A stretch of 32,000 nucleotides of DNA from Planctomycetales bacterium (GTDB lineage Bacteria > 4484-113 > JAFGCY01): the NCBI GenBank assembly GCA_022646745.1, contig CP060262.1, positions 1,710,001 to 1,742,000 on the forward strand, written 5' to 3'. The notes under the pieces are model-generated. The model was not told the origin of the DNA, searched no databases, and saw only the letters and a program-made list of their open reading frames with translations. Shown here in pieces: positions 4,128 through 28,775 of this stretch (positions within the stretch are counted from its first letter, which is position 1; every line of letters starts with the position of its first letter). The position numbers were made by a program, and so were the translations under genes.

Positions 4128-4155
4128 CTCTCACCAGCTCGCCAAGGCTGCGGGA

Positions 4156-5217: not shown

Positions 5218-5249
5218 GCTGGCGGTGCTGTGATCTGAACTGGAAATGA

Positions 5250-5633
5250 CTATTCCTCCTCGAGGCTCGAGTAGTCGTCGCGGTAGTCCGGGATTTCATT
5301 CAGCAGCTTCTCGACCTCGGCCGCATACTGCAGCGAATGGTCTTCCATGAAGCGCAGGCGCGGCACGATGCGCAGGTCAGTCTCCTCGCGCAGCCGCCCC
5401 CAGATCAGGCCGGAAGCCCGGTTGAGCGCCTCGACGCATTCCTTCGTGCGCTCACCGCCCGCAAGCGTGGAGATGCCGACCTCCGCATGCGCGAGATCGG
5501 GCGAGACGTCCACCTTGGTGATGCTGTAGCCCTCAATGCGGGGGTCCGACAGCTCACCGCTGATGATCTCGCTGATGGTTCGCAGCACGAGGGATTCAAT
5601 CCTCGCCTGGCGCTTGTGTGAAGCTCGTCCCAT
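5250..5633 (-). CDS. rbfA: ribosome-binding factor A
   Basis: 127 aa. RIESLVLRTISEIISGELSDPRI...ITKVDVSPDLAHAEV and LRIVPRLRF are typical of RbfA. Confidence 0.9.
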   Translation of the reverse strand: MGRASHKRQARIESLVLRTISEIISGELSDPRIEGYSITKVDVSPDLAHAEVGISTLAGGERTKECVEALNRASGLIWGRLREETDLRIVPRLRFMEDHSLQYAAEVEKLLNEIPDYRDDYSSLEEE

Positions 5634-8532: not shown

Positions 8533-8881
8533 GGGATGGGGGATGCGGGATGGGGGATGGGGAGGGTGCGTCACGCCACGGCGTGACTTGCGCACAATGG
8601 GATGGGGGATGCGGGATGGGCAGAATGGGATGTGGGATGTGGGATGGGCAGTAGTCAGTGGGCAGGGAGACTTAGCGGCGACATGTTGTCGCCTGATCTT
8701 CCAGGAACCTATCCGCTCAATGCCGTCTGGGAGGCGTAGGGCAAGGCCATCGTGCCTTGCCCAGGATGGCGACAGCCATCCGGTTGGAAAGCACTTGCCA
8801 AAATTGCTGTCGCCTATGCCGACAGGCACAGGCTTGCGATCTTCATCTGCTCATCCCGCATCCCCCATTCCACATCCCTCA
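8533..8881. repeat. cassette bounded by GGGATGN heptamer arrays, with hairpins and a 55-nt conserved element inside
   Basis: G-rich heptamers span 8533-8566 and 8599-8667 (gggatgg gggatgc gggatgg gcagaat gggatgt gggatgt gggatgg gcagtag tcagtgg). C-rich heptamers span 8852-8878. 8533-8559 pairs with 8852-8878 at 23/27 plus 1 wobble. The last heptamer runs directly into the stop codon (tca, 8879-8881) of the PKD gene. Confidence 0.85.
8731..8785 (+). repeat. conserved 55-nt GTAG-headed double-hairpin element (REP-like), copy 1
   Basis: The sequence is gaggcGTAGggcaaggccatcgtgccttgcccaggatggcgacagccatccggtt. It has a 9-bp stem gggcaaggc/gccttgccc and a 7-bp stem ggatggc/gccatcc. It matches the reverse complement of 16742-16796 at 48 of 55 positions. 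Confidence 0.8.
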
Positions 8882-11548
8882 GCTGCTGCGGATCGCCACC
8901 CTGAGCGTGTTCACATCGCTGTCAAAGCGGCTGTAGCAGACGATGCTGTTGCCATTGGCAAAATGTGCGAGGTCCACGAACACATCTGCGCTGCCGGGCG
9001 TGAAGGTATTGGGACTTGCCGAGATGTCCTCAATGGTCCAGCTGCCCTCGTCCTGGATTGCGAAGCGCACGTGCGTGCCGCTGCCGTCGAACTCCGTGTA
9101 GGCGATGCAGGCCGTACCATCCGGCATATAAGCCAGCTGCGAAACCAGCGCGATTTCCTCGCCACTTCCTGTATCGGTGACAATGGTGATGTCCTCGTCG
9201 GCAAGCACTGTGTCATCCTCTGCCAGTTCCGTATAGCGCAGGCCGGTGTCGGTGCCGCTGATGCTCTGGTAGCTCATGCCGGTGTAGCTGCCAGGCAGGA
9301 TGTCAATGCTTCCGAACAGGCCGCTGTCAGCATTGGCAAAGGGATTTGCCCAGTTGCCACCGTCCTCACGCAGGTACAGGCCGCCAGCCAGGCTGGCCTG
9401 CATCTCGCCAGTGGTGTCGTGGTAGCGCATATGCGGGAATGTCAGGCCGGTGCCGAAGCCGTACCAGCGGGTGTAGGTCAGGTTCCCGGGGGTGCTGGCC
9501 GGGTCATACGTCAGGTCGTAATAGTTCAGGTCCTGGGCGTTGAGCGTCGGACTGTTCGAGTTCTCGACGCAGTTGCTGATGCCGAAGTGGGTGTTGACCG
9601 GGTTGTAGTCAATCCCCGTCCAGATCGCGCCGTCTCGCGCCAGCTGGGCCTCGGTCGCAATGTTGCTCAGGTAGAAGTTGTACCAGGTCGGCACTTCATT
9701 CGTGATGTTCAATGCGCTGAAGCCCACAACCGAGTTTTCGGCCGGCACGGCGGCGGCTGGGTCGATGTAGACCAGCGACACGCGTGGCAGGTTCTCCCCG
9801 TCCGCAAAGCCGATATCGGTGAATGCAGGGAAGCCCGGTGGCACGATCGCCCCCAGCAGGTCAGTATTGGTCCAGTTCGCGGGAGCCGCCAGGTCCAGGG
9901 TGCTGTCGCCGATCACGACAAAGGGCTTCAGTACATTCGGATCCAGGTTTGCATAGGCCACCATCGGGTTGCCATTGCTGGCAACGGCCACGCTCGGTGT
10001 CCAGCCACCGTCCGTGCCGGTGATTGTTGACAGGTCCACTTCCGTCCACTGGAAGGTGGGCTCGCCTGTCACCTCAAAGCTGAAGTTCAGTGTGTCATTG
10101 CCAAAGGAGTTGGATGCAGTCACGCTGCATTCGTAGATGCCGGGTGCGCCCAGCGTTTCCAGCGGGTTCTCGTCAGGGCTCGTGGCCGGCGTGGCGGCCG
10201 GGCCGAACTGCCAGTCCCAGGTGTCAACCGTGCCGGTGTAGCTCGGTGTGAAAGTGATTTCCGCCCCACTTGCACCGCTGAGCGGATCAACCGAGATGAT
10301 CACCGGCGCCTCGCCGGACTGCGTGACTTCGAAGCTGAAGTCGAACTGGTCGCTGCCGAACAGGTTCGTGGCGGTCACGCTGCAGTTGTAGGTGCCTGGC
10401 TCGCCCAGTTCCACATCCGGGCTTTCCAGCGTGCTGCTGTCCGGGTTGCCAGCGCCGTTGAATTGCCAGTCCCAGCTGTCAACGGTGCCGCTGAACTCCG
10501 GGATGAAAGTGACAATGCTGCCGCTTTCGCCGGACAGCGGGCTGACCGCCGTCACATCCGGTGCCGCGCCCGTCACCGGGCCGACTTCCAGCGTGAAGTT
10601 GAACACCGCCTCGCCGAAGCGTGACAGCGCCGTCACGCTGGCACTGTAGCTGCCCTCGGCACCGAGCGTGATCTGCGGGCTCTCCTCCGTGCTTGTGTTG
10701 GGGCTGGCGCCACCGCCGAAGTTCCACTCCCAGCTTTCCACCAGGTTGCTCACACTGGCGACGGGCTGGATCTGTGCGCCGGTCTCGCCACTGCTCGGGC
10801 TGACACTGCCCACTTCCGGCGCGCTGCGGTCCACGTCGAAGCCGACGCGGTCCAGCTGGATGCCATTGCCGTCATGCGTCAGCACGAACAGGAACACGTT
10901 GCCAAGCGGGGAAACGTAGTCGGCATAGGCCGTCAGGGTCTTCGTGTAGGTCTCACTCTCGCTGCGGTCGAGGATTTCCCAGCGGCCGCTTGCATAGTTG
11001 GCCAGCCCGACGAGGAAGCCCGGGCTGCCACCGGTGAAGTTCACGTTGCTGGTCTCGATCGTCAGCTTGTTGAAGCCGAGGTCACCGTTGACATCGGGCA
11101 GCATGTAGATCGCCCAGTTGCGCTGGCCGGCCCCGGTGAACATGCTGAGGCTGGTATTGCTGACAACCGCATTGGAGGACTTGTCGAAGGCATCCGCCCC
11201 ATCCTTCCATTCTCGGCCGATCCCGCTGGCACTGCGCGATCCCGAAAGATCCGCTTCCATGCCAGACAGGGAAGGCAGGCCGCTGTCACGTGCGACGAAC
11301 AGGCTGCTGAGTGCCGGGTCGAGTGCATTGGCGGAATCCAGCGGGATGCTCGAGAAAATGGACTGCGAGTCAGTCCGGTCCACGTTGGCTGTTCCCGCAT
11401 CCGTGCCCAGCGCCGGTCTCAGTGACTTCCCGGCCTGTACGGAGCGGTCTCCGACACTGTCCAGCCCGTCACGGGAGTGCTGGCTGCCGGAGCAACCGAT
11501 CAACACCGCTGCAATAAGCAGCATCAGGGCCCAGTTCACAATCCTCAT
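8879..11548 (-). CDS. surface lipoprotein with three PKD-like domains and a C-terminal repeat (propeller-like) region
   Basis: ATG at 11548 with a GGAGA RBS is preferred over the GTG at 11560. The signal peptide and lipobox are MRIVNWALMLLIAAVLIGC. Three ~85-aa repeats carry W(E/D)WxF(G/N)G motifs. The C-terminal blocks (NGNPMVAY..., IACIAYTEFDGSGTHVRFA, NGNSIVCYSRFDSDVNTLRVA) resemble the tail of the 1433-aa protein. Confidence 0.8.
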   Translation of the reverse strand: MRIVNWALMLLIAAVLIGCSGSQHSRDGLDSVGDRSVQAGKSLRPALGTDAGTANVDRTDSQSIFSSIPLDSANALDPALSSLFVARDSGLPSLSGMEADLSGSRSASGIGREWKDGADAFDKSSNAVVSNTSLSMFTGAGQRNWAIYMLPDVNGDLGFNKLTIETSNVNFTGGSPGFLVGLANYASGRWEILDRSESETYTKTLTAYADYVSPLGNVFLFVLTHDGNGIQLDRVGFDVDRSAPEVGSVSPSSGETGAQIQPVASVSNLVESWEWNFGGGASPNTSTEESPQITLGAEGSYSASVTALSRFGEAVFNFTLEVGPVTGAAPDVTAVSPLSGESGSIVTFIPEFSGTVDSWDWQFNGAGNPDSSTLESPDVELGEPGTYNCSVTATNLFGSDQFDFSFEVTQSGEAPVIISVDPLSGASGAEITFTPSYTGTVDTWDWQFGPAATPATSPDENPLETLGAPGIYECSVTASNSFGNDTLNFSFEVTGEPTFQWTEVDLSTITGTDGGWTPSVAVASNGNPMVAYANLDPNVLKPFVVIGDSTLDLAAPANWTNTDLLGAIVPPGFPAFTDIGFADGENLPRVSLVYIDPAAAVPAENSVVGFSALNITNEVPTWYNFYLSNIATEAQLARDGAIWTGIDYNPVNTHFGISNCVENSNSPTLNAQDLNYYDLTYDPASTPGNLTYTRWYGFGTGLTFPHMRYHDTTGEMQASLAGGLYLREDGGNWANPFANADSGLFGSIDILPGSYTGMSYQSISGTDTGLRYTELAEDDTVLADEDITIVTDTGSGEEIALVSQLAYMPDGTACIAYTEFDGSGTHVRFAIQDEGSWTIEDISASPNTFTPGSADVFVDLAHFANGNSIVCYSRFDSDVNTLRVAIRSS

Positions 11549-11600
11549 GCCTGTCTCCACCGGTAGTGAGAGTTCACATGAGTTTAACAGAACTCAATAC

Positions 11601-14830: not shown

Positions 14831-14916
14831 TGCGACATTATCGGCAGCATGGCGATGTTAATATAGCTGCTCGGTAATCCCTTTAATAATCATCTAACAC
14901 CCATCAGGGGAACAAT

Positions 14917-16245
14917 ATGCGTATCTTTTCTATGCTGCTGGCGGCCGTGATCGCGATCTCGGTCCTGCCCGGCATCGCACACGCGGACATCAATGCGGAA
15001 ACGAGGGCCGAGGCCATCGCCCGTATCCAGGAGCGCGATCCCAATTACGGCGGCGGGGCCCACGCCGGCGGCGGCCAGACGGCTGCTTCCATGGGCATGC
15101 ACAGGGGCGACAGTGCCTGGGAGGAGTTCTGGGTACAGGACATCGACTTCCGTCCCTTCATGGGCCGCCTGCGCACGGTGCTGCTCGAGGACCCCGGCAT
15201 GGCGTCCTGCACGGCGAAGGATGACATCATCAGCTTCCTGGACCAGATGTACCTGTTCAACATGGGCACCTCGCATGTGGACATGGCGATCACCGGTGAT
15301 GACATCATGTTCAACTGTGCCCAGACCTGCGAGGGTCTGCCGGCGGACAGTGCCCCGGCCCGCCTCGGCGCGCTGGAGAACCTGCCGCTGCAGAGCTACA
15401 GCCTGGTGGACGACGGTGACTTCATCATGTACATGGGCATCCAGCACATGCCGACGCGCCTGATGATCCAGCTTGATGAGATGCAGCGCCAGGCTGCGAT
15501 GGCGGAGGGCATGGACGGCCCGCTGTCCGAGATCTTCAGCGAGATGGACATGCAGGAGCTGGAGCAGACCATGCAGCTCATGAAGGCGATGCAGATCGAC
15601 AAGATCATCGACAGCACCCTGTCCGGTGAGGTCGGCATCGCGCTGTTCGACATGCCTTCCATCGACATGCTGGTGAACGGCGGCGACGTGCAGCCGACGG
15701 ACTTCGTGGCCGCTGTGGCGATCGGCATCAAGGATGCTGAGTACGTCAGGGAGATGATGGGCACCTACGGCAGCGAAATCGGCCTGACCCCTCGCCCCGA
15801 CAGCGGTGCCAACGGCTGGGACGTGTTCGACGTGCCGATGATGCCGGGCCTCGGCATCGTGATGAACGACAGCATGGTGGTTGCCACCACCAATGCCGAC
15901 TTCGTGCTTGGCAAGCTGATGGACGGCGGCTCGATGAGCGTCGCTCCCTGCCAGGCGCACTTCGCGCTCAACATGGCGGCGCTGAACGGCAAGGTCGTGG
16001 AGCCCGGCATGAAGATGCTGGCCGACGAGATCGCCGATGGCAATGACGAGGTCTACTGGCCGGTGGACAGCATGAAGTACCTGTGGGACGTGCCTGAGCA
16101 GGACGGCCTCGGATACATGACGATGACCGCCTACACCGGCGACGCGATGCGCCACGAAATGCGCATGAAGAAGGCCGTGTTCCAGTACCTGATGTACTAC
16201 ATCAGCACGATGGGCGCCGGCGTGATCCAGACCGAGATGCATTAG
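14917..16245 (+). CDS. secreted methionine-rich protein of unknown function
   Basis: AGGGGAA RBS. Signal peptide MRIFSMLLAAVIAISVLPGIAHA. Strong GC3 bias in this frame. A manual count gives 44 Met in 442 aa. The 511-aa minus-strand ORF over the same DNA is a His-rich shadow (CAT is the antisense of ATG). Confidence 0.8.
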   Translation: MRIFSMLLAAVIAISVLPGIAHADINAETRAEAIARIQERDPNYGGGAHAGGGQTAASMGMHRGDSAWEEFWVQDIDFRPFMGRLRTVLLEDPGMASCTAKDDIISFLDQMYLFNMGTSHVDMAITGDDIMFNCAQTCEGLPADSAPARLGALENLPLQSYSLVDDGDFIMYMGIQHMPTRLMIQLDEMQRQAAMAEGMDGPLSEIFSEMDMQELEQTMQLMKAMQIDKIIDSTLSGEVGIALFDMPSIDMLVNGGDVQPTDFVAAVAIGIKDAEYVREMMGTYGSEIGLTPRPDSGANGWDVFDVPMMPGLGIVMNDSMVVATTNADFVLGKLMDGGSMSVAPCQAHFALNMAALNGKVVEPGMKMLADEIADGNDEVYWPVDSMKYLWDVPEQDGLGYMTMTAYTGDAMRHEMRMKKAVFQYLMYYISTMGAGVIQTEMH

Positions 16246-16399
16246 GAGGCCAAGCTGTAAGCTTGGCAACGGATGCCCGGTTACAAGATGTGCGCCGGAG
16301 CTCAGTCCCGCCGGAGGCCAAGCTGTAAGCTTGGCAATTGCCAGGCAGAACTGCCTGGCCTCCACCAGGGGTGCTGCATCCCGCGAAGCAGGATGCAGC
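16245..16399 (+). repeat. array of perfect hairpin modules in the 3' region of the Met-rich gene
   Basis: A 25-nt module ggaggccaagctgtaagcttggcaa occurs at 16245-16269 and 16313-16337 (stem gccaagct/agcttggc). Further hairpins are ccaggcag-aa-ctgcctgg (16341-16358) and gctgcatcc-(9 nt)-ggatgcagc (16373-16399). Confidence 0.8.
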
Positions 16400-16430
16400 C
16401 GACAGATCTGGCAACATCGATCCAATCAAG

Positions 16431-16837: not shown

Positions 16838-17470
16838 TCAGACTTTCGTCTGAGCTCCGGCTAGCGCTGAAGCGGGTAGCTCCGCAGCACTGCTCCAGCG
16901 CCACTCATGCGCATGCGCGCACAGCCCGGCGCTGACCGGGTTGTTGTGGATGTACTCCACCGCGGCGTCGAAATGCTCCTCATGCTTAATGCGGCTGAGG
17001 AAGCTGCCATCCAGCCAGACCTTGCCGCTGCGTTGCATAAGCTTGTTGATCTGGCCGGCGCTGAAGCCCTTGATCGCCCCGACCAGCCGGCCCAGCGAAT
17101 AACCCCCCAGCGGCTCCATCAGGCAATGCACGTGGTTGGGCATGATCACCCAGGCATGCATCCGGTAGCGCTGCCTGTGGTAATGCAACAGGCTGTCGCG
17201 TACGATGGCAGCCAGCCGCTCCTCACGCAGCCAGCACTGCCCGAGTCCGCGGTCGAGGTCCGGCTCGACACGGTTGAACAACCGGCGACGGTCCTCGGAT
17301 TCGATCCCCTGCTGCAGCTGGTACATCCGCCTCGGCGGTACGGCATCAAACAACTGGAAGGTCACCGCCTGCAGGCCACTGCCCGCCTGCGGTGCCTGCG
17401 GGGCCGCCTGCACCGGCTTCGCCTCCTGCCTTGCCACAGCCTCAGGCTGGGCTGTCTGGATCTCGCTCAT
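16838..17470 (-). CDS. REP-associated tyrosine transposase-like protein (RAYT; IS200/IS605-type Y1 HUH enzyme)
   Basis: 210 aa. Contains the HUH motif in WVIMPNHVHCLMEP, the catalytic Tyr motif in VEYIHNNPVSAGL, and the terminal EWRWSS typical of this family. No second (TnpB) gene and no IS ends are visible. Confidence 0.85.
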   Translation of the reverse strand: MSEIQTAQPEAVARQEAKPVQAAPQAPQAGSGLQAVTFQLFDAVPPRRMYQLQQGIESEDRRRLFNRVEPDLDRGLGQCWLREERLAAIVRDSLLHYHRQRYRMHAWVIMPNHVHCLMEPLGGYSLGRLVGAIKGFSAGQINKLMQRSGKVWLDGSFLSRIKHEEHFDAAVEYIHNNPVSAGLCAHAHEWRWSSAAELPASALAGAQTKV

Positions 17471-17522
17471 TTCCGCATCCTCCTGTTCCTCAGTAGAGCG
17501 CAGTGCTCGTTCACTAGTCAGG

Positions 17523-17550
17523 AGTATAGCATAATAATGACAAAAATCAA
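17523..17550 (-). promoter_or_regulatory. candidate promoter of the RAYT gene
   Basis: The minus strand reads TTGATT (complement of 17545-17550), a 16-nt spacer, then TATACT (complement of 17523-17528), in the A/T-rich divergent region. Confidence 0.45.
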
Positions 17551-17578
17551 CCAGTAATGTTATTATTTGCCTGATTAA

Positions 17579-17607
17579 TTGATTTTACGTGTCAGGAAAG
17601 GTAAAAT
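17579..17607 (+). promoter_or_regulatory. candidate promoter of the 137-aa gene
   Basis: TTGATT (17579-17584), a 17-nt spacer, then TAAAAT (17602-17607). AGGAGG lies at 17621-17626 before the ATG at 17632. Confidence 0.5.
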
Positions 17608-19168: not shown

Positions 19169-19921
19169 CTACTGTCCGAACAGCCTGAGATGCGCCTGGC
19201 GCAGCTGGGTGGCCGTGGCCCGGGCATCCTGGCCGGACAGGATGCTCAGCTCGTAGTAACTGGACACCGCGACAAGCTGCTGGCTGGCCGTGAAGCTGAA
19301 TGGCACGCCGCCGAGCTGGCCTTCGAATTCCCACTGCACATCCAGTGCTGACAGGCTGCGGCCGAGTAGCCAGCGCTCATGCGTCTCCGGATTGTTCTGG
19401 ATCACGGGCTGGCTGCTGCGCAGGCTGACCGCCTGGCGCAGCAGGCTTTCCGCATGGTCCGCCGAGAAGCGGCCGTGCAGGTTGACCACATCCACCTGCT
19501 GCAGGTAGTCCGGCAGATTGGGGTCCGGGCTGTAGTGGATCACATGCTCAAGGCTGCCCATGCCGGACTGCAGCAGGATCTCACCGGGCGGGGAACTCCA
19601 TGAAGCGGGCAGGGGCACTTCGTCGAAGCGCAATTGGATGTCCGCCACACCGCCCTCGAGCTGGCCGTCCGTGAAGGGCAGCAGCAGCCGCCGGCCAATG
19701 AGCTGCTCATCCAGCGCGGCTGCTATCCAGGCATTCTCGATCGGCAGGCCTTCAACCTGCTGCAGGCCGCCGAGCTCGAACCATTCCAGCTCGTCAATAT
19801 ATTTCTGGGGAGTGTTGTCATCAAGTTCGGGTACTGTCGGCGTGCTGCAGGACAGCAGCAGGCAGCCAAACATTATGGCTGCAAGGATCCCCGGCTGTCT
19901 CGCTCCCCGGATCGGCGGCAT
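19169..19921 (-). CDS. lipoprotein of unknown function
   Basis: The track ORF (to 20203) runs antisense through the tRNA and the tandem repeat. The internal ATG at 19921 gives MPPIRGARQPGILAAIMFGCLLLSCS (signal peptide and lipobox) and 250 aa. Confidence 0.7.
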   Translation of the reverse strand: MPPIRGARQPGILAAIMFGCLLLSCSTPTVPELDDNTPQKYIDELEWFELGGLQQVEGLPIENAWIAAALDEQLIGRRLLLPFTDGQLEGGVADIQLRFDEVPLPASWSSPPGEILLQSGMGSLEHVIHYSPDPNLPDYLQQVDVVNLHGRFSADHAESLLRQAVSLRSSQPVIQNNPETHERWLLGRSLSALDVQWEFEGQLGGVPFSFTASQQLVAVSSYYELSILSGQDARATATQLRQAHLRLFGQ

Positions 19922-20028
19922 TACTGCATTGTAACGGAGCAGGAGCCACTGCGTCGGGTACCGGAGCGCGACGATGTGCGGGATACCGGTGCTTCGGCGG
20001 CAGGCATGCCGGGGTATAATCGCCACCC

Positions 20029-20108
20029 GGGCGAGTGGCGGAATTGGCAGACGCGCCAGACTTAGGATCTGGTACTTCGGTGTGGGGGTTCGAGTCCCCC
20101 CTCGCCCA
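20029..20108 (+). tRNA. tRNA-Leu (anticodon UAG), class II with long variable arm
   Basis: Manual fold: acceptor gggcgag/ctcgccc, D arm gcg-gaattggcaga-cgc, anticodon arm ccaga-cTTAGga-tctgg, variable arm tacttcggtgt, T arm ggggg-ttcgagt-ccccc, discriminator A. CCA is not encoded. TATAAT at 20015-20020 lies just upstream. Confidence 0.88.
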
Positions 20109-20118
20109 GATCCTTTTG

Positions 20119-20386
20119 CCGTCTCGTGCGAGCACTCGACGGTCCTAGGGCGCGCAGCCACTTCGGGAGCCTGCTCCCTCAGTGCTGCAGGCACTGATTC
20201 CAATTGAGCACATTGCAGTCTCGTGCGAGCACTCGACGGTCATGGGGCGCGCAGCCACTTCGGGAGCCTGCTCCCTCAGCGCTGCAGGCACTGATTCCAA
20301 TTGAGCACATTGCCGTCTCGTGCGAGCACTCGACGGTCTTGCTTCGCGCAGCCACTTCAGGAGCCTGCTCCCTCAGCGCTGCAGGC
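20119..20386 (+). repeat. 97-bp tandem repeat, 2.8 copies, starting 10 nt after the tRNA
   Basis: Units start at 20119, 20216 and 20313 and are near-identical, differing at about nine positions between the first two copies. Each begins c(c/a)gtctcgtgcgagcactcgacggtc, followed by a 6-7-nt variable patch (ctaggg / atgggg / ttgcttc) and a gggag-cctg-ctccc hairpin. The third copy is truncated at 20386. Confidence 0.9.
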
Positions 20387-20679: not shown

Positions 20680-23600
20680 TCAGAACACACGGGCCACCTT
20701 CACGCCGCCGTTGAAGTAGACGATGAAGGGGTTGCCACCGACCTCGATGGTGTCGATGTCATTGTCACCGGTGTCCACCAGGTCCGTCGCATCAAAGGCC
20801 GTGCCGGAGGCATCGCTGCCCCAGGCCATCCGCACCTGGTTGGCATTGTTCTCGAAGTAGGCCACGAAGGGCAGGCTGTTGCTCCACAGCAGGCTGCTCA
20901 CCGTGTTGTCGTCATTGGTCGCCACGTTCACCTGGCTGCCCCAGCTGGTGCCGTTCGCATCAGTCGCCCGCTTGTAGACGATGTCGCTGCCGGTGCGGCT
21001 CTCGTAGCTGATCGCCGGGTTGCCATTGATCACCAGCAGTGAGGGGTTGTCATAGCTGTCGTTCACCGATGCGTTGCTGGCGATGGTGACCGTGCTGCCC
21101 CAGCTGGCGCCGTCCACGTCGCTGGCGCGGCGGTACTTCACGCCGGCCGAGCCGTTCCAGTAGAAGAAGGCCACCGCCGGCATGCCGTTCACGACCGCCA
21201 GGCTGGGCACGCCACCGCCGTTGGTGCCGCCGGAGTTGACCGTGCGGACCGTGCCCCAGCTGGAGCCGTCGGCATTGCTGGCGCGCACGTACTTTGTGGC
21301 GTTCGCTGCGTTGTCAATGTAGCAGATCGCCGGGTTGCCGGAGATCACCTCCATCTCGCAGTCGCTGACTGAGCCGGAGTAGACCTCCACCTTGTTGGTC
21401 TCTGTCCAGTTGGCACCGGTGGCGTCATCAGCGCGCAGGTAGTACAGCCCGCCGGAGTTGTTGTTGTAGCAGACCGCCGGGCGGCCATTGGCCTCAACCA
21501 GGTGGGCGTTGCGGCCGACGTCACCCGTGAAGGCGACGGTCACCGGGCTGCCCCAGCTGGTGCCGCTGGTGTTCGTGGCGCGCACGTACTTCAGGTCCTG
21601 GCCGCTGGCATCGTAGTAGATGATCGCCGGGTTGCCGCCGATGATGTCAGCCTTGATGCGGGTGGCCGGGCTGCCGGCGGTGGTGACCGTGATCAGCTCG
21701 GCGATGCGCACCTGGTGCGTGACCTGCGCCGTGTCCTGGTTGTTGTCATTGTCGGTGATGCGCACCCTGAGGATGTAGTCGCCTGTACTGCCGAAGCTCG
21801 TGGTGGCGACCGGATTGGTTCCGTTGTCGGTTTCATAGCTGCCGTTGCCGTCGAGGTCGAACTCGAACTTGGTGATCGAGCCACCCGGGTCGTCCGAGCC
21901 GCTGGCATCCACGGTGACTGTCACGCCGGTGCCTGAGGGGTTGGGGCTCGTCACGATGTCCGCCACCGGCGGGATGTCCGGCAGGATCGCCACCGTGTGG
22001 CTGTCGGTCGCATTCTCGTTGTCAGTCACGACCAGCACCGGGTTGTACTCAGCGAACACGGTGTAGGTGTGCTGCACCGTGGCGTTCGTGAAGCTCGTAG
22101 CGTCGAACAGGCCGTCACCCTCCCAGTCCCAGTCATATCGCACGATCGTGCCGTCCGGGTCTGAGCTGCCCGCCGGGTTGAAGGTGACGGTGAGCGGCAC
22201 GCCGGTGTAGCTCGTGGTGTCCGCCGTGAAGAAGGCGGTCGGGGCCTGGTTGGCACCGCCACCGCTTGTGACTGTGATCACGATGGTATCAGTGTCGCTG
22301 GCACCGTCGTTGTCAGTCACGCTCAGTACCACGTTGTATGTGCCCGGGTTGCTGAAGGTATGCGCCACCGAGGGGTCGGCGCCACTGTCCGTGGTGGTCG
22401 TGTCATCCCAGTCCCAGCTGTAGTTGACGATCACGCCATCCGGGTCGCTGCTGCCGGCGGCGGTGAAGGGCACCGTCAGCGGGGCCGGTCCGCTCAGCAC
22501 GCTGGCATAGATGTCCGCAGTCGGCGGGATGTTGCTCACGTTCGTGACGTTGACCTGGATCGTGTCGGTGTCGGTCGCGCCGTCGTCATCCTGCACGGTC
22601 AGTACCACGTCGTACACTCCGCTGGCGCCGAATAGGTGGCTGATGGTCGGGTCCGCGCCGCTGTCCTCGGCGGCGGTGCCGTCATCCCAGTCCCAGACGT
22701 AGCTGACGATGCTGCCATCGAGGTCGGTGCTGCCGGCTGCGGTGAAGGCCACGGTCAGCGGGGAATCACCGGAGGTCGGCACGGCGAAGATGTCCGCCAC
22801 CGGGACGAGGTTGGCCGGCGGCGCACTGACGACCACGAGGAAGCTGTCGCTGTCAACTCCGCCGTCATTGTCAGTCACGGTGACCGTCGCCGAGTAGCTG
22901 CCGGCGGCGAGGTAGGGATGGAAGGTGGTCGGGTCCGTGCCGGTTGAAATGACCGGGCTGCCGTCGCCGAAGTCCCAGCTGTAGTCCGTGACCACGCCAT
23001 CCGGGTCATTGCTGCCGCTGGCGTCGAGGATCGCGTTGAGCGGCACCACGCCGGTCGGCGGAAGCACCACGAGGTCTGCACTGGGCGGCACGTTCACGCC
23101 GGGCGGCACCACGGTGATGGTGACGGTGTCGGTGTCCTGCTTGCCGCCGTTGTCAATCGCGGTCAGCACCACGTCATACACGCCGGGGTTGTTGAAGGTA
23201 TGCGAGACGCTGGGGTCCTTGCCGCTGCCGAAGGGTACGCCGCCCTCGTCCCAGCTCCAGAAGTATGAGGTGATCTGGCCATCCGGGTCCACGCTGCCGC
23301 CCGCATCGAAGCTGACGGTCAGCGGGGCCGTGCCGCCGCTCGGGCTGGCGATCACGTCCGCCACCGGTGCGATGTTCGCCGGCGGATCAAGCACCGTGAT
23401 CTCGATCGTGTCCTCGGCGCTGTCACCGCTGTTGTCAGTCACGCGTAGCTTCGCGAGGAAGGTGCCGCTGTCGTTGTAGGTGTGCAGCACGGTGCTGTCG
23501 CTGCCGCTGTCCAGGTCGAAGTTGCCGTCGCCGTCGAAGTCCCACTGGAACTTGACCAGCAGGCCGTCCACGTCGTAGCTGCCGCTGCCGATGAAGCCGA

Positions 23601-24981
23601 TGGTCAGCGGGTTGAAGCCGCTCACCGCCGTGGCGGCGATGTCGGCGCTCGGGTCGACATTGCTCACGCTGGCAACGGTGGCCTCGAAGGGGTTGGCCTG
23701 GAAGGTGTCGGTACCGCCGCTGTTGTCAGTCACGCGCACCAGCGGGGCGAAGGTGCCGGCCGTGCCGTACTTGTGGTTGATCAGCGGCTCGAAGCCATAG
23801 GCGTCAAACAGGCCGTCGCCCTCGAAGTCCCATTCGTAGAAGATGATGTTGCCATCCTCATCAGTGCTGGCTGAGGCATCCAGCTCGACGGGCAGCGGGA
23901 TCCCCTGGCCGAGGATGCGCAGGCTGAGCCTGGCCTCCGGCAGGAAGTTGTAGTCCGGCTCACCGGGGCCGACCTCCGGGTCGGTGCCCAGCCCGCCGCC
24001 ATTGATGTTGGAGCGGGTGCCCTCGTTGTCGCCAACGAAGGGGCGCACCCAGTAGAACTCATCCGCCGCCGGGCTGGCAACAACGCTCTGCCAGCTGCGG
24101 CGCTCCAGCATCGCATTGGAGAAGCTGTCACCGAAGCTGAGTTCAGCGATCGGGTCCACCGTGCTGGCCTCGCCGTAGCCGACCGGTACGTCATTGATGT
24201 CGTTGCTGGCGAACACGCGGTAGCCGTCGACATTGTTGCCCCAGTAGCGGCCGATCACGGACAGGTCCGCCAGCCCGATCTCGCCGTCGGAGTTGCCGTC
24301 GATCACGCTCTGCGCGCTTTCGTAGTCAAAGGGGCCACTTTCGCCGAAGTGCAGGCCGAGCGGCACCAGGTCCGCCAGCCCGACCACGCCGTTCTGGTCG
24401 AAGTCGCCCGGGTTGTTGTAGTACCAGGTCAGGGTCGTAGTATCCACATCCCAGAACAGCGGGGACAGTGCCGCGGAATGCACCGGCACGCCGCTCATGC
24501 CACGCGTGGGCAGCATGCCCGTGTTGTCAAACAGGGCGGTGGCCAGCACGGTGCCGGCCTCGACCGACCGCTGGCTGTTGCCAAGCGGCACCCGGCCGTA
24601 GCTCAGGAGGCCCGGGGCCTCAAGCTGCTCGATGCTGATCGCCTCACTGCCGGGGCCAAGCGCTTCAGTGGCGGAGACTCCGAGCGGGCTGTAGCTTGCG
24701 CTGTCGTAATGCAGCTCCATGAGCAGGCTGCCTGCATTCAGCGGACGCGCCGCGCTGATCTCCAGCACGGTCTGGCTGCCTTCAGTGCGGGTGCTAAGGC
24801 TGAGCTCGCTGGCGTCAATTGCCCGCCCGCCTGCGGTTGGGGTGCTGAGCGAGAAGCCACTCGTTGAATGAGCATCCGGGCTTTGTGCTGCCTGGTCCAG
24901 GGGGCTGCCCTGTCCGCCGCAGCCGGCGAGCAGCAGGCTGATCGCAAGGATGGTCAAGCCGGTAAGTGCTATGCGTTGCAT
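20680..24981 (-). CDS. giant surface lipoprotein: dockerin-like module, ~8 PKD domains, C-terminal Asp-box/BNR-like repeat propeller
   Basis: ATG at 24981 with a GGAGAGG RBS gives MQRIALTGLTILAISLLLAGC (lipobox). The dockerin-type duplicated Ca-binding loops are DFDQNGVVGLAD and DGNSDGEIGLAD. Eight W/F-x-(W/F)-D-x-(D/E)-G-D-G style PKD cores are present. About seven C-terminal blocks have the form ...NPAI.Y......KY.RA.D..G.SWG. Confidence 0.85.
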   Translation of the reverse strand: MQRIALTGLTILAISLLLAGCGGQGSPLDQAAQSPDAHSTSGFSLSTPTAGGRAIDASELSLSTRTEGSQTVLEISAARPLNAGSLLMELHYDSASYSPLGVSATEALGPGSEAISIEQLEAPGLLSYGRVPLGNSQRSVEAGTVLATALFDNTGMLPTRGMSGVPVHSAALSPLFWDVDTTTLTWYYNNPGDFDQNGVVGLADLVPLGLHFGESGPFDYESAQSVIDGNSDGEIGLADLSVIGRYWGNNVDGYRVFASNDINDVPVGYGEASTVDPIAELSFGDSFSNAMLERRSWQSVVASPAADEFYWVRPFVGDNEGTRSNINGGGLGTDPEVGPGEPDYNFLPEARLSLRILGQGIPLPVELDASASTDEDGNIIFYEWDFEGDGLFDAYGFEPLINHKYGTAGTFAPLVRVTDNSGGTDTFQANPFEATVASVSNVDPSADIAATAVSGFNPLTIGFIGSGSYDVDGLLVKFQWDFDGDGNFDLDSGSDSTVLHTYNDSGTFLAKLRVTDNSGDSAEDTIEITVLDPPANIAPVADVIASPSGGTAPLTVSFDAGGSVDPDGQITSYFWSWDEGGVPFGSGKDPSVSHTFNNPGVYDVVLTAIDNGGKQDTDTVTITVVPPGVNVPPSADLVVLPPTGVVPLNAILDASGSNDPDGVVTDYSWDFGDGSPVISTGTDPTTFHPYLAAGSYSATVTVTDNDGGVDSDSFLVVVSAPPANLVPVADIFAVPTSGDSPLTVAFTAAGSTDLDGSIVSYVWDWDDGTAAEDSGADPTISHLFGASGVYDVVLTVQDDDGATDTDTIQVNVTNVSNIPPTADIYASVLSGPAPLTVPFTAAGSSDPDGVIVNYSWDWDDTTTTDSGADPSVAHTFSNPGTYNVVLSVTDNDGASDTDTIVITVTSGGGANQAPTAFFTADTTSYTGVPLTVTFNPAGSSDPDGTIVRYDWDWEGDGLFDATSFTNATVQHTYTVFAEYNPVLVVTDNENATDSHTVAILPDIPPVADIVTSPNPSGTGVTVTVDASGSDDPGGSITKFEFDLDGNGSYETDNGTNPVATTSFGSTGDYILRVRITDNDNNQDTAQVTHQVRIAELITVTTAGSPATRIKADIIGGNPAIIYYDASGQDLKYVRATNTSGTSWGSPVTVAFTGDVGRNAHLVEANGRPAVCYNNNSGGLYYLRADDATGANWTETNKVEVYSGSVSDCEMEVISGNPAICYIDNAANATKYVRASNADGSSWGTVRTVNSGGTNGGGVPSLAVVNGMPAVAFFYWNGSAGVKYRRASDVDGASWGSTVTIASNASVNDSYDNPSLLVINGNPAISYESRTGSDIVYKRATDANGTSWGSQVNVATNDDNTVSSLLWSNSLPFVAYFENNANQVRMAWGSDASGTAFDATDLVDTGDNDIDTIEVGGNPFIVYFNGGVKVARVF

Positions 24982-25117
24982 GCAATCCTCTCCAGTAGTC
25001 GTTGTCCTGTATCGACCCGTTAGTAGAGCCATCACCCCTGGGGGGTGGTCCGCCTACATTTTACGTGACTTTAATGGACTGTGTGCGCTAAAGGAGGATT
25101 TCGTCTCAATCAGGGGA

Positions 25118-26083
25118 TCAGCTCATCCAGGGCAGGCGGTCGAGGTCCACATTGCCGCCGGTGAGGATCATGCCGACGCGCTTGCCGGCGATGTCCATCC
25201 GGCCGGACAGCGCGGCCGCCAGCACCGTGGCGGAGGAGGCTTCGATGATCAGGTTCGTGCGCTCCCAGAACAGGCGCATCGCTGCCGTGATCTCATCGTC
25301 GCTGACGCGCTCGACCTGCAGTTCGTAGTCGCGCATGATGCCAAAGGTCAGTTCGCTGATCCAGGCCTTCAGCCCGTCGCAGATGGTGTCTGTGTTGTCA
25401 TTGATCTGCGGGGAGCCGATGCGCAGCGAGCGCCAGGCGTCATCCGTGATCTCGGGCTCGGCTGCGATCACGCGGCAGTCCGGCGCGATGGCCTGTGTGG
25501 TGATGATCGAGCCGCAGACGATCCCGCCGCCACCGACCGGCGTCATCAGGATGTCGAGGCCGGGGCAGTCCTCGTGGAACTCGAGTGCGGCCGTGCCCTG
25601 GCCGGCGATGATGCGCGGGTCGTCAAACGGGTGAACGGAAGCCGCACCGGTGCGCTCGATGATTTCGTTGACAACACGGCGGCGGTCCTCGATGTCAGTG
25701 GTACAGAACACCACCTCCGCGCCGAGTTCGCGCACGGCATCCACCTTGAGCGCGACCGCGTCCTCGGGCATCACGAGCCAGGCCGGGATGCCGCGCATGC
25801 GGGCGGCGCGGGCCACGGCCTGGGCGTGGTTGCCGCTGGAATGGCCGACCACGCCGCGCGCGGCCTCCTCGTCCGTGAGCTGCATGATGGTGTTCAGTGC
25901 ACCGCGGATCTTGAAGGCCCCGATGCGCTGCAGGTTCTCACACTTGAAGAACACGCGCGCGCCGGTGAGCGAGTCCAGGTGTGCGCAGGTATGCACCGGT
26001 GTGCGGTGGATCCAGTCACGGATGCGGGCATGCGCGGCCTGGATGTCGGCAAACACGGGCGGCTGCTTGGGATCGGCGGACAT
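25118..26083 (-). CDS. PLP-dependent threonine/serine dehydratase (serine racemase) family enzyme
   Basis: 321 aa. Contains FFKCENLQRIGAFKIRGA (PLP lysine), SSGNHAQAVA and the GGGG loop. Confidence 0.85.
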   Translation of the reverse strand: MSADPKQPPVFADIQAAHARIRDWIHRTPVHTCAHLDSLTGARVFFKCENLQRIGAFKIRGALNTIMQLTDEEAARGVVGHSSGNHAQAVARAARMRGIPAWLVMPEDAVALKVDAVRELGAEVVFCTTDIEDRRRVVNEIIERTGAASVHPFDDPRIIAGQGTAALEFHEDCPGLDILMTPVGGGGIVCGSIITTQAIAPDCRVIAAEPEITDDAWRSLRIGSPQINDNTDTICDGLKAWISELTFGIMRDYELQVERVSDDEITAAMRLFWERTNLIIEASSATVLAAALSGRMDIAGKRVGMILTGGNVDLDRLPWMS

Positions 26084-26147
26084 AGCAGTTATAGTAGCAA
26101 TGGGACTAGGTTCTCATTTGTGTGAAATTTCTGAGAATGGCTTGACA

Positions 26148-26167
26148 AGAGAGAGAGAGAGAGAGAG
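26148..26167. repeat. (AG)10 dinucleotide microsatellite immediately after a TTGACA box
   Basis: TTGACA at 26142-26147 is followed by agagagagagagagagagag (26148-26167) and then ttaactt. It lies about 40 nt upstream of the Cys-rich gene start. Confidence 0.9.
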
Positions 26168-26206
26168 TTAACTTGAACTCAATTAATTGAATACGAGGTA
26201 ATCTTC

Positions 26207-26662
26207 ATGAAGCTTGTTGCATTTGGATATTCAGTATTGGTTGTCTCTTTGTTCTTAGCATCTACTGAGGCTAAAGCAGAATGTGACTGTCCCGTTGGCA
26301 TCTTTGGAGATTGCGCAAATTATAGCTGTAAGGTTGAGTTTACGGGAAACTCAACAGGTTCCTATCGATTCGTAGGTTCGTATCCGTGTTCCGGAGGAGG
26401 ATCTGCTAACTTTTATGTTTGGGTTGAACAATGTGATGCAGCTTTGAATTATAATTGCAGCGGACCACCTACGAATGAGTGTTGGTATAATCTCGAATGT
26501 ATTAAATGCAGCCGTACAACATGGGAAGATGGTCCACTTGGATGCTCTCCCGCGTATCCGACTGATCCTACTTCCTTCTCGATTCCTAAAATGGGTTGGT
26601 GTTGCGACATTGCTGGACATTGGGCAATACATGCTGGACATTATCATTATTGCGGAAGTTGA
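26207..26662 (+). CDS. small secreted cysteine-rich protein (14 Cys), unknown family
   Basis: GAGGT RBS. Signal peptide MKLVAFGYSVLVVSLFLASTEAKA. The mature ~127 aa has 14 Cys and a His-rich tail HWAIHAGHYHYCGS. Codons are A/T-rich, unlike both neighbouring genes. Confidence 0.7.
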   Translation: MKLVAFGYSVLVVSLFLASTEAKAECDCPVGIFGDCANYSCKVEFTGNSTGSYRFVGSYPCSGGGSANFYVWVEQCDAALNYNCSGPPTNECWYNLECIKCSRTTWEDGPLGCSPAYPTDPTSFSIPKMGWCCDIAGHWAIHAGHYHYCGS

Positions 26663-26734
26663 TAAACCGATTATCCAGAGAATTGTCATTAACAGACCTA
26701 GTACACCTAAGATTCTAACCAATAGGAGAATGAA

Positions 26735-27580
26735 ATGAGTTGCATGAGAACGAAGTCCAGATTTTTCTTGCTCTGTATGATTTTTGTAGTCTTTTATTCG
26801 GGATTTTCCTATGCAGAAGATAAAGGAATGTACCCCATTGAAGTTGAACAAGACTATTATGGTGAATTTGCTATGAGTAAGTGCCCATCCTTGGTATTTA
26901 TTAGCGAAGCACCTCAAGCCTACTTCAAAGTATTCGGAGAGTGGCCTGAGACATTCCAGGCGATCATTGACGAAGGGCTAATACGCGACAACTTAACGAT
27001 TGATGGTGAACATGTTATTTCTCCTGATGACGGAATTCTCGATGGATATTATGATCGTTTATACATCTATCGCGGTCCTCAAACTCCACCACAGATTGCC
27101 ACTATGGGAAGTGTTAAGTTGTCAGAGAACGCACAAGAACATGCAGATTCAACAGGTTTTATCAGTACTCTTCCGGATGGATCAACTGCAATGAGCTTGC
27201 CAAATCTGAAACCTCTTCATGTATATGCGGAACAAAGCAAGAGAAAACTTGAGAGTGACCCGGATCTGAATGCAAATGCAAGTGAGGCAAGGTATGGAGG
27301 CAATCTGGCAGCACATAAACTGATGGCGATTGCTTACATGTGCATGGTGGGTTCTGGTGAATATCATGCTGTGTATGGTACATTCCCTGCCAATGAGGAC
27401 TGGGAGCAGTTTGTGGACACAGGGTTCTGCCCGGTCACGAGTGACATGCTGAATCCGGCAACTGGAATGCCTTTCAACACAGACGGTTCTCCATTCAGCC
27501 TGGATTTCATGCACCTACCGAATGGTAGTTTCACGGTCAGCGTACATGGTGACAACGGAGACTATGTCAAAGCCTGGTAG
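26735..27580 (+). CDS. secreted protein of unknown function (same A/T-rich islet)
   Basis: AGGAG RBS at 26724-26728. The N-terminus has a hydrophobic signal (RFFLLCMIFVVFYSGFSYA). A weak internal duplication is visible around Y..V(F/Y)G.(W/F)P......(I/V)D.G. Confidence 0.7.
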   Translation: MSCMRTKSRFFLLCMIFVVFYSGFSYAEDKGMYPIEVEQDYYGEFAMSKCPSLVFISEAPQAYFKVFGEWPETFQAIIDEGLIRDNLTIDGEHVISPDDGILDGYYDRLYIYRGPQTPPQIATMGSVKLSENAQEHADSTGFISTLPDGSTAMSLPNLKPLHVYAEQSKRKLESDPDLNANASEARYGGNLAAHKLMAIAYMCMVGSGEYHAVYGTFPANEDWEQFVDTGFCPVTSDMLNPATGMPFNTDGSPFSLDFMHLPNGSFTVSVHGDNGDYVKAW

Positions 27581-27598
27581 GCGGGGTAGCAGCCCGGT

Positions 27599-28648
27599 TC
27601 AGTAACCGCGCGTGCAATCCACGATGTTAAGCAGGTCATCCCGGCCGGCGCTCAGGCGCTTGAGGTTCTCGATCACTTCATCCCAGCGCTCAAGGTCGTC
27701 AAAGGGCGAGGCGGCGCGATGCGGGCTGAGCACTACATTGCCAAGTTCGTGGAAGGGGCGGTGCCAGGGGAACATGCGGCCCTGTTCATCAGGTTCAGGG
27801 CGGTAGTCGTACCAGACATCAATCGCGGCCCCGGCGAGGAAGCCGCTTTCAAGCGCTTCGAACAGCGCGTCCTCTTTGACAACACCGCCGCGTGCCACGT
27901 TGACAAGGAAGCTGCCCTGGCCCAGCAGCTCGATCTCGCGCCTGCCGATCAGGCCTTCACTGTCAGGCGTGAAGGGCACGGCGACCACCAGCACATCCAC
28001 CGCCTGCAGGAAGTCGTCAAGCTGCTCTATCGAGTGCAGGCCGTCCAGCGTGGCCGGGCTGTCAGTTGACAGGCTGCCGCTTCTGTTGCAGGCGAGCACC
28101 CGGCAGCCGAAGCCGGAGAGCATCAGGTGCACATTGCGGTTGACATGGCCGTAGCCCAGCAGGCCGATTGTCCTGTGGCTGATCGGTGTGTTGGCAAGGA
28201 ATTCATCCCCCAGCCGCCACTTCCCCGCAAGCATTGCGTTATGGTGCTGCACGGTGCCGCTGAGCATTGCCAATAACAGCGTGACGGTGGTCTGCGCGGT
28301 GAAGGCCGCATTGCCATGCCCGTTGATCAGCACGATGTCCCGCGTCTGCTGGATCTCAGCGAACATGCCGTAGAGGTGCTGCACCCCGGCGCCGGGGTTG
28401 ATCACGGCTTTGAGTTTCGGCGCAGCGTCAATCAGTGAGCGCGTCGGACGCCAGCCGAGCAACACATCGGCATCACCGGCCAGCGGCAGCAGCAGCGATT
28501 CATCCGCTCCGGTCCATTCATGGCCATCGGGAGCGGAGATGAAGTGCACGGGCCAGCCCTTGAGCCCCTTTGTCATGTAGTCCAGCAGCTCGGGGCGCGG
28601 CTGCCAGAGGCAGAGCACATTGATGTCACGATGGCGGGGATCAGGCAT
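27599..28648 (-). CDS. D-isomer-specific 2-hydroxyacid dehydrogenase family, NAD-binding
   Basis: 349 aa. Contains IGLLGYGHVNRNV (Rossmann GxGxxG), LVNVARGGVV, AAIDVW and LSPHRAA (catalytic His). Confidence 0.82.
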   Translation of the reverse strand: MPDPRHRDINVLCLWQPRPELLDYMTKGLKGWPVHFISAPDGHEWTGADESLLLPLAGDADVLLGWRPTRSLIDAAPKLKAVINPGAGVQHLYGMFAEIQQTRDIVLINGHGNAAFTAQTTVTLLLAMLSGTVQHHNAMLAGKWRLGDEFLANTPISHRTIGLLGYGHVNRNVHLMLSGFGCRVLACNRSGSLSTDSPATLDGLHSIEQLDDFLQAVDVLVVAVPFTPDSEGLIGRREIELLGQGSFLVNVARGGVVKEDALFEALESGFLAGAAIDVWYDYRPEPDEQGRMFPWHRPFHELGNVVLSPHRAASPFDDLERWDEVIENLKRLSAGRDDLLNIVDCTRGY

Positions 28649-28667: not shown

Positions 28668-28775
28668 CCAGTGGTCAGTAGTCAGTGGTCAGAAGTCAGA
28701 TCGCATTCTTCCTGACCACCGACCACTGACCACCGACCACTGACCACCGACCACTGACCACCGACCACGGACCAC
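28668..28775. repeat. hairpin-forming inverted heptamer arrays (CAGTNGT / NNGACCA), right arm 14-nt unit x4
   Basis: The left arm is ccagtgg tcagtag tcagtgg tcagaag tcag (28668-28699). The loop is atcgcattcttc. The right arm is ctgaccaccgacca x4 (28712-28767) plus cggaccac. There are 26/32 Watson-Crick pairs on the plus strand. Four of the six mismatches are A-C, which become G-U on the minus strand. Confidence 0.85.

Follow-up and report, generated by a model that had tools for sequence, protein, structure and literature searches.

An AT-rich islet between two core enzyme genes of a UBP7-lineage bacterium: a probable miniature replacement-type flexible islet encoding two unannotated, predicted exported protein families

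Within the 32,000 nucleotides analysed here (contig CP060262.1 of assembly GCA_022646745.1, labelled Planctomycetales bacterium; hereafter the window), positions 26084 to 27598 form an AT-rich islet of 1.5 kb, wedged between the genes of a pyridoxal phosphate (PLP)-dependent dehydratase and a D-isomer-specific 2-hydroxyacid dehydrogenase. Two genes can be found in the islet, A for a cysteine-rich mini-protein and B for a larger, two-lobed partner (Table 1); no further copy of either is present in the window. A sequence-only reading had described them as co-directional, with ribosome-binding sites and signal peptides, and had given the first product as a 151-aa protein with 14 Cys in about 127 mature residues and a His-rich tail. 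This description is confirmed, the Shine-Dalgarno sites having been read in the sequence and the Sec-type leaders judged by eye. From its position, its alleles and its gene content in related genomes, as set out below, the islet is probably a miniature replacement-type flexible islet encoding two predicted exported protein families that have so far escaped annotation.

Table 1. Features of the islet and its two flanking genes (positions in the window)
Feature	Position	Strand	Description
Left flank, PLP-dependent dehydratase	25118..26083	-	PALP, Pfam 1.7e-74; core gene, GC3 0.89
AT-rich leader	26084..26206	+	GC 0.37-0.38; precedes gene A; GAGG upstream of the ATG of A
Gene A	26207..26662	+	151-aa predicted exported mini-protein; predicted mature 127 aa, 14 Cys, pI 4.7
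A-B spacer	26663..26734	+	72 nt; AGGAG 8 nt before the ATG of B
Gene B	26735..27580	+	281-aa predicted exported protein; mature ~254 aa, pI 4.4; two-lobed
Right flank, D-isomer-specific 2-hydroxyacid dehydrogenase	27599..28648	-	Pfam 2-Hacid_dh_C 9e-39; core gene, GC3 0.79; convergent with B

The islet is set off from its surroundings by composition. The flanking genes have a G+C content (GC) of 0.67-0.70 in 300-nt windows, as opposed to 0.38-0.45 over about 26084-27400, and the overall value is 0.44 for the islet vs 0.62 for the whole window. The left edge is abrupt and coincides with the dehydratase start codon, the GC of adjacent 60-nt bins being 0.70 (26024-26083) and 0.38 (26084-26143). 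The right edge is gradual, with a rise from 0.45 to 0.58 along the final ~300 nt of B, to 0.63 from 27599 onwards. The GC at third codon positions (GC3) is as low as 0.31 in gene A and 0.42 in gene B; of the 16 open reading frames (ORFs) measured around them, 15 have values of 0.79-0.93. The abrupt switch of composition and codon usage claimed earlier is therefore seen both in the GC windows and in GC3, except that its right edge is gradual, and the islet is indeed compositionally isolated. As for the sixteenth ORF (14890-16425, reverse strand), its GC3 of 0.59 comes with a GC of 0.87 at first codon positions, which suggests that the real gene is the forward-strand ORF 14917-16245; the reverse-strand ORF is probably a wrong-frame call.

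The leader ahead of gene A contains a perfect (AG)10 microsatellite (26148-26167) followed by an AT-rich palindrome (26168-26201). Since the tract has an identical length in all eight metagenome contigs compared, seven of them 100% identical to the window and one (L008) 99.8%, slipped-strand phase variation is not indicated, and slippage in (AG)10 was discarded as a switch. RBS-like motifs, GAGG for A and AGGAG for B, lie 8-12 nt ahead of the respective ATG codons. A promoter and terminator scan of 25900-27800 returned promoter-like matches at chance level and 0 terminator-like sites; co-transcription of A and B is likely, because the short spacer between them is free of terminator-like hairpins. 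Downstream, 18 nt (27581-27598) separate the stop codon of B from that of the convergent dehydrogenase gene. Neither an integrase gene nor meaningful flanking direct repeats were found around the islet, and the nearest tRNA gene, a tRNA-Leu (20029-20108, forward strand), is 6 kb away, in line with the earlier statement that integrase, tRNA and flanking direct repeats are missing.

Identical copies of the islet are present in several metagenome assemblies. Because independent contigs that are 100% identical to the window span both edges (25927-27665 in L004 and 26147-28958 in L003), the junctions are not an assembly artefact; a seemingly divergent PALP end in L006 proved to be merely an unaligned contig end of 46 nt. 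The short-read assemblies L003-L010 recurrently break near the islet (starts at 25927/25928, end at 27665), and most of the distant members of the B family lie on contigs of ~1 kb, which suggests that assemblies fragment at low-GC islets and that metagenome-assembled genomes (MAGs) may contain too few of them.

The leader of the A protein, judged to be of Sec type, is MKLVAFGYSVLVVSLFLASTEAKA, cleaved before E (...LFLASTEAKA/ECDCP), and the C-terminal tail HWAIHAGHYHYC holds 4 His. Used alone as a query against 5.8 billion proteins, A found only itself. A profile search adds P0155, which is the protein of loci L014 and L016, and P0156, so that together with L001A, encoded in contig L001, three relatives are detectable. 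The Cys positions are kept 14/14 in L001A, which is 44% identical to A, and 13/14 in L014A/P0155/P0156. The His-rich tail is unique to the window allele, being missing from L001A, P0155 and P0156. Pfam, NCBIfam, PADLOC, PHROGs and the PDB sequences hold no match to A, and at E<=1 nothing is found in Pfam, metallothionein and Csp families included. An AlphaFold 2 (AF2) model from three sequences was unusable (predicted local distance difference test score, pLDDT, 34.5). The conserved, even number of Cys (14) in a protein with an export leader suggests about seven disulfides, and A is probably beta-rich. Fungal and oomycete small secreted cysteine-rich proteins (SSCPs) have ~110-130 mature residues with many conserved Cys, evolve fast, are orphan-like and reside in compositionally distinct genome compartments. 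A may be likened to them, by analogy and not by homology, its host being a bacterium of an uncultured, free-living lineage in activated sludge that is not known to be host-associated.

B belongs to a larger family. Its leader, judged in the same way, has the n-h-c organisation of Sec-type leaders and ends in ...FFLLCMIFVVFYSGFSYA before E (...VVFYSGFSYA/EDKG); in most of the 81 aligned members of the family, a hydrophobic stretch at the N terminus leads into an A-x-A-like site. Among 1.84 billion representatives, the family comprises 163 clusters at E<=1e-3 and 106 at E<=1e-10, nearly all of 240-290 aa and the majority matching in two stretches. A metagenome scan with the close alignment retrieved L016-like loci only. 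Named members are annotated solely as 'hypothetical protein', 0/81 match Pfam or NCBIfam, and B itself finds nothing significant in PADLOC, PHROGs or the PDB sequences. The earlier remark that neither family could be recognised thus holds against Pfam, NCBIfam, PHROGs and PADLOC. No homologue of B was found in collections of phages, plasmids and viral contigs, and an origin of B from such elements was set aside on that ground.

The two halves of B are related to each other. The N half carries the signature YYxVxGxWPxxWxxVxxxGLxQxxL...IDPDDGxLDFxGDxxY and the C half YxxxxGxxPxsWxEFxxSGxxPxxxxSxNPxTGxPFxGDGSxxD, the repeated unit being a helix-GxWP-helix motif accompanied by conserved acidic loops (DPDDG...D and NPxTGxPFxxDGS). 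The internal duplication, which had been noticed as a weak one, is real at profile level, the two halves aligning over 31 columns with an hhalign probability of 97% (E 6e-11). An AF2 model from the 81-sequence alignment (pLDDT 90.7, predicted template modelling score 0.86) depicts B as a well-folded, two-lobed acidic protein. Foldseek with this model returned no neighbour in the PDB (best E 0.15, TM <0.2) or in BFVD (best E 0.3). The repeat (helix, Y-x-x-x-G-x-W/Y-P, short helix, N/D-P-x-T/W-G loop) resembles the post-helix region of GspG-type pseudopilins, a likeness that failed every test. As a type II secretion pseudopilin or type IV pilin, B was rejected for its Sec-type leader ending in SYA/E, the class III (prepilin) leader of pilins, G|F/M-x-x-x-E with a hydrophobic helix that the mature protein keeps, being absent; even at E<=10 the isolated halves have no match to Pfam N_methyl or T2SSG; and PDB pilins gave non-significant matches (E ~0.7), the best pseudopilin in Foldseek being XcpG (E 4.7, TM 0.16-0.27).

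The nearest genomes found, HKST-UBA01 and HKST-UBA03, are MAGs that carry the label UBP7. Their source is saline activated sludge of the Shatin plant in Hong Kong, sampled over nine years in a series that yielded three UBP7 MAGs (PMC8495973). The arrangement PALP(-)/[A]/B(+)/2-Hacid_dh(-) is present in all four related genomes found, i.e., the window and contigs L001, L011 and L012, and gene A at two of the four loci (window and L001). In L001, an uncalled ORF of 147 aa (7619-8062), 44% identical to A and with its 14 Cys in register, precedes a B homologue; B is 59-61% identical between this contig and the window, the flanks 71% (PALP) and 75-76% (dehydrogenase). In L011 and L012, B stands alone at ~100-150 nt from PALP. 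Across the three contigs, the orthologues of the flanking genes are 71-90% (dehydratase) and 75-93% (dehydrogenase) identical to those of the window. Every B allele at this junction is GC-poorer than its flanks (GC3 0.42-0.63 vs 0.77-0.91), the window allele being the most AT-rich of all and the orthologous alleles of its closest relatives having 0.61-0.63.

When pairwise identities are compared, three adjacent genes give three different groupings of the four genomes. PALP unites the window with L012 (90%) and L001 with L011 (86%), with 71-73% between these groups. The dehydrogenase unites the window with L011 (93%), followed by L012 (86%) and L001 (75%). B in turn unites L011 with L012 (94%), which have this allele in common although their PALP genes are only 72% identical, and the alleles of the window and of L001 are 53-59% identical to all others. 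Between types, B alleles are thus 53-59% identical vs up to 90-93% for the flanks; at such protein identities their synonymous sites are probably saturated. On these identities the locus reads as a recombination mosaic. Just past the dehydrogenase gene, L001, L011 and L012 have Y1 (IS200/RAYT-like) transposase genes, and the corresponding position of the window, between the genes of the dehydrogenase and a C1 peptidase (28669-28775), is occupied by a REP-like hairpin repeat. It consists of (CAGTGGTCAGNAGT)x2.2 at 28669-28699 opposite the inverted tandem (CTGACCACCGACCA)x4.6 at 28712-28775, and as single-stranded DNA would fold into a long hairpin (-23.6 kcal/mol, z = -3.75). A Y1_Tnp (IS200-like) transposase gene can also be found elsewhere in the window, at 16838-17470 on the reverse strand; its 210-aa product (Pfam 6e-9) is 37% identical to the one beside the islet of L001, and it adjoins a low-GC patch (17400-17600).

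With regard to the pairing of the two genes, a hidden Markov model (HMM) census of all fetched loci, complemented by inspection of ORFs, places a Cys-rich ORF (138-151 aa, 14-17 Cys) immediately ahead of B at 6 of the 11 independent loci, namely the window, L001, L014/L016 and three tandem pairs in L015, a MAG labelled Planctomycetales. B occurs without A in L002, L011, L012 and L013/L026, and a second tandem B gives the order A+B+B in L014/L016. The distant B member P0010 has a 145-aa gene upstream that overlaps its start. A and B are therefore a recurrent but optional module, and the proposal of a two-gene module, for which co-occurrence elsewhere had been named as the check, has been borne out. 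Because B occurs without A at about half of the loci, B does not need A. Where they are paired, the two proteins co-diverge: between the window and L001 A is 44% and B 61% identical, and within L015 the values are 35-44% and 44-50%. In every pair A and B alike are acidic, with pI 4.1-5.4 and 4.2-4.8, respectively. The L015 mini-proteins resemble A in size, position, number of mature Cys (14-15) and core spacing (...C-x5/6-C-x2-C); they were handled as analogous, or possibly very distant relatives, the hhalign probability of homology being 0.7%. The three pairs of L015 are interleaved with two paralogous, GC-rich CAP/SCP/PR-1 genes (1318-2625 and 4093-5292; PF00188, ~1e-20), the whole region being a cluster of secreted proteins.

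A second type of B locus is also variable. It is organised as ABC2_membrane_6, a variable gene and B, convergent with a ZnuA/ABC-3 Mn-Zn operon, and its variable slot holds A (L014/L016), an AT-rich ORF of 400 aa (L013/L026) or nothing (L002). The 400-aa ORF (4525-5727 in L013, 3672-4874 in L026; GC 0.37, GC3 0.34) lies directly upstream of the B paralogue, and its product has N-terminal transmembrane segments, a K/E-rich coiled coil and a C-terminal domain.

Replacement flexible genomic islands pass between genomes by homologous recombination at their conserved borders, and the structures they encode are typically exposed (Lopez-Perez, Martin-Cuadrado and Rodriguez-Valera, 2014; PMC4033161). 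The islet shares with them a fixed site with the same core genes on either side in every relative, a similar kind of product from alleles or gene contents that diverge strongly, a GC below that of the core genome, products that appear to be exported (Sec-type leaders by eye), and a discordance of the borders that implies homologous recombination, as far as MAG contigs and four genomes allow it to be read. It differs in scale, having 1.5 kb and one or two genes as compared with ~10-100 kb and many genes, and in content, with unannotated proteins in the place of glycosyltransferase, O-chain or flagellin-glycosylation genes; moreover, the comparison made here involves relatives at the genus or family level and not strains of one species.

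Of the traits of a classical genomic island, the islet has the atypical composition and codon usage, but not the combination of a tRNA or tmRNA site with an integrase and direct repeats, and, in place of the empty site that close relatives of such an island would show, all four related genomes found have a filled one. The sequence-only reading had proposed a recent acquisition, to be given up if the pair were a conserved feature of the lineage at this locus with the same composition. For B this is largely the case, as in all four genomes the junction holds a B gene whose GC is below that of the flanks; for A it is half the case. As a single insertion event, the recent arrival of a foreign two-gene module that has not yet ameliorated to the GC of its host is now quite unlikely. 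The GC3 of the two genes relative to ~0.85 around them, the very sharp left edge, the window allele being more AT-rich than the B of its closest relatives and the Y1 transposase genes beside the dehydrogenase in the three other contigs all speak for it, but they have to be set against a junction that holds B in 4/4 genomes and A+B in common with the most distant one (44%/59%), the lack of an adjacent tRNA, integrase or direct repeats, and the lack of phage or plasmid copies and of any donor-like close copy in 5.8 billion proteins outside the same population. At most, this allele replaced an older one, and it may have come from a lower-GC pool. Since B occupies the junction in all four genomes and A+B is common to the most distant, the slot predates the divergence of these lineages. 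We consider it likely that it is an old hypervariable slot exchanged by recombination.

What such a slot encodes can be compared with several known systems. Neither homology nor structure confirmed any of the roles suggested earlier for the pair (effector or toxin, bacteriocin-like, adhesin). One possibility is that A is a Sec-exported bacteriocin-like or polymorphic toxin and B its periplasmic immunity protein, lone and extra B genes being orphan immunity genes. The cassettes of such systems likewise consist of co-directional small and larger genes in the order toxin, then immunity, with tight spacing, rapid co-divergence, hypervariability, recombinational exchange and a GC below that of the genome. 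They also form arrays of diverged pairs with orphan downstream genes, as in L015 (tandem pairs), L014 (extra B) and L002 and L011-L013 (orphan B), and the products of A and B would reach the same compartment. Yet neither protein has a recognisable toxin or immunity domain in Pfam, NCBIfam, PADLOC or PHROGs, or a trafficking domain; the leaders are plain Sec leaders, with no linked type V, VI or VII secretion system or ABC exporter; and of the two proteins it is the downstream one that leads in size, conservation and distribution, belonging to a family of 163 clusters that share a conserved signature, a profile atypical of immunity proteins. Since charge complementarity is missing as well, this explanation in its strict form is rather unlikely, although it overlaps with the mechanism favoured below. 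It is somewhat less probable still that the pair builds a surface structure, with B as a matrix, holdfast or appendage subunit and A as a disulfide-rich tip or accessory, both variable as targets of phages or grazers. Here the exported, acidic and aromatic-rich nature of both proteins, the many secreted proteins encoded nearby (PKD giants in the window and L016, CAP-domain proteins in L015) and the exposed products typical of replacement islands (PMC4033161) weigh against the lack of nearby assembly machinery, of adhesin-typical repeats and of any pilin or pseudopilin signal of B in Pfam or Foldseek; no lipobox, sortase motif or PEP-CTERM was seen by eye, no systematic search having been made.

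Metal binding or storage, with a metallothionein- or Csp-like A and a B tied to metal uptake, is the least probable of these explanations and very improbable indeed. It takes its appeal from the 14 Cys and the HWAIHAGHYHYC tail of the window's A, and from the B paralogues of L002, L013 and L026, which adjoin a ZnuA/ABC-3/DtxR Mn-Zn uptake operon. This operon is, however, convergent with B, and the locus of the window lacks it. The metal-binding option put forward earlier is weakened because the His-rich tail is missing from every relative of A. An even, strictly conserved set of Cys in an exported, probably beta-rich protein would point to disulfides and not to thiolate clusters, and A has neither the conserved metal-ligand motif that marks metallothioneins and Csp proteins, with Cys clusters or helical CxxxC and conserved His, nor, as reported above, a Pfam match to either family.

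On balance, we lean towards a composite explanation in which the old hypervariable slot carries an extracytoplasmic interaction cassette of effector/partner type. In this composite, a long-standing accessory slot between two core enzyme genes would always hold B, sometimes with A upstream, and would be diversified and exchanged by homologous recombination through its conserved flanks, with no fresh insertion of a mobile element. A and B, transcribed together and exported to the periplasm or the cell exterior, would work jointly as an interaction pair outside the cytoplasm and evolve fast. The conserved component, which binds, carries or neutralises and is able to stand alone, would be B; the variable one would be A, a ligand or effector knotted by disulfides. 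Competitors, phages or grazers would exert the diversifying pressure behind allele turnover, tandem arrays and orphan B copies. Taken by itself, the effector/partner mechanism is a tentative proposal, possible and not yet probable.

Several observations weigh against the composite explanation. B lacks A at about half of the loci, the homology of the L015 mini-proteins to A is not demonstrable, and A and B show no charge complementarity, both being acidic. In Pfam, NCBIfam, PADLOC and PHROGs, no family of toxins, immunity proteins, adhesins or defence proteins is matched by A or B, and the signal peptides of both were judged by eye. At 1.5 kb, the islet is far from the tens of kb and the glycosylation clusters of classical replacement islands. 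Finally, the mosaic rests on three MAG or metagenome contigs in addition to the window, and strain-mixed assemblies could exaggerate the pattern, although identities of 72-94% are unlike the products of assembler strain-switching.

As to the low GC, two origins can be hypothesized, alone or together. The cassettes may derive from a lower-GC pool, circulating as shared accessory genes and ameliorated to differing extents, and fast-evolving accessory genes may escape a GC-enriching force that acts on core genes. Across loci the GC3 of B ranges from 0.42 in the window to 0.80 in the second B of L014, and B is GC-poor relative to its neighbours throughout. Another AT-rich patch lies at positions 1-1131 of the window (GC 0.31-0.47), with an ORF of 167 aa (628-1131, forward strand) that has no obvious signal peptide; because such patches occur elsewhere in the window, low-GC accessory patches would be a genome-wide habit and not a unique event.

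A bolder form of the composite explanation, which we regard as doubtful, is that A and B represent an undescribed class of Sec-exported, recombination-shuffled, two-component cassettes in UBP7 and Planctomycetota-like bacteria. Such a cassette would combine a 7-disulfide effector or ligand, of at least two sequence types, with a cognate two-lobed protein that binds or neutralises it and has a fold without relatives among solved structures. It would serve in inter-organism antagonism or recognition, its AT-richness being kept by circulation as a shared accessory pool.

Regarding the surroundings of the islet, the dehydratase resembles BhcB/threo-3-hydroxyaspartate ammonia-lyase, its NCBIfam match to a BhcB-like model (1e-121) falling below the curated cutoff. 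Two large secreted or lipoprotein-like PKD proteins are encoded on the reverse strand at 20680-25035 and 8879-11560, the 1451-aa one having 8 PKD_4 repeats. A PKD-type giant also adjoins the dehydratase gene in L011, and PKD proteins are found near the A-B-B locus in L016. The reverse-strand ORF 19169-20203 is probably over-extended or spurious, because it overlaps the tRNA-Leu gene on the opposite strand and has no Pfam match.

The islet provides a compact, concrete case of a hypervariable islet in a candidate phylum without cultured members. As the source community was sampled monthly for nine years (PMC8495973), with 97 monthly metagenomes, allele turnover at the islet could be followed in existing data. 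Two unannotated, predicted exported families are flagged in this way that may constitute a novel type of secreted interaction system, B in particular combining 163 clusters and a confidently predicted fold with the absence of a solved or viral structural neighbour. Lineage-specific secreted hypothetical proteins in AT-rich islets are common, and if A and B are not of effector/partner type, they would be an ordinary pair of such genes in a flexible islet. What makes the present case tractable is the recurrent pairing with a 14-Cys mini-protein, a B fold with no neighbour in the libraries searched, and the nine-year metagenome series. If the effector/partner-like reading is true, polymorphic secreted cassettes would extend to plain Sec-exported, disulfide-knotted proteins of PVC-like bacteria.

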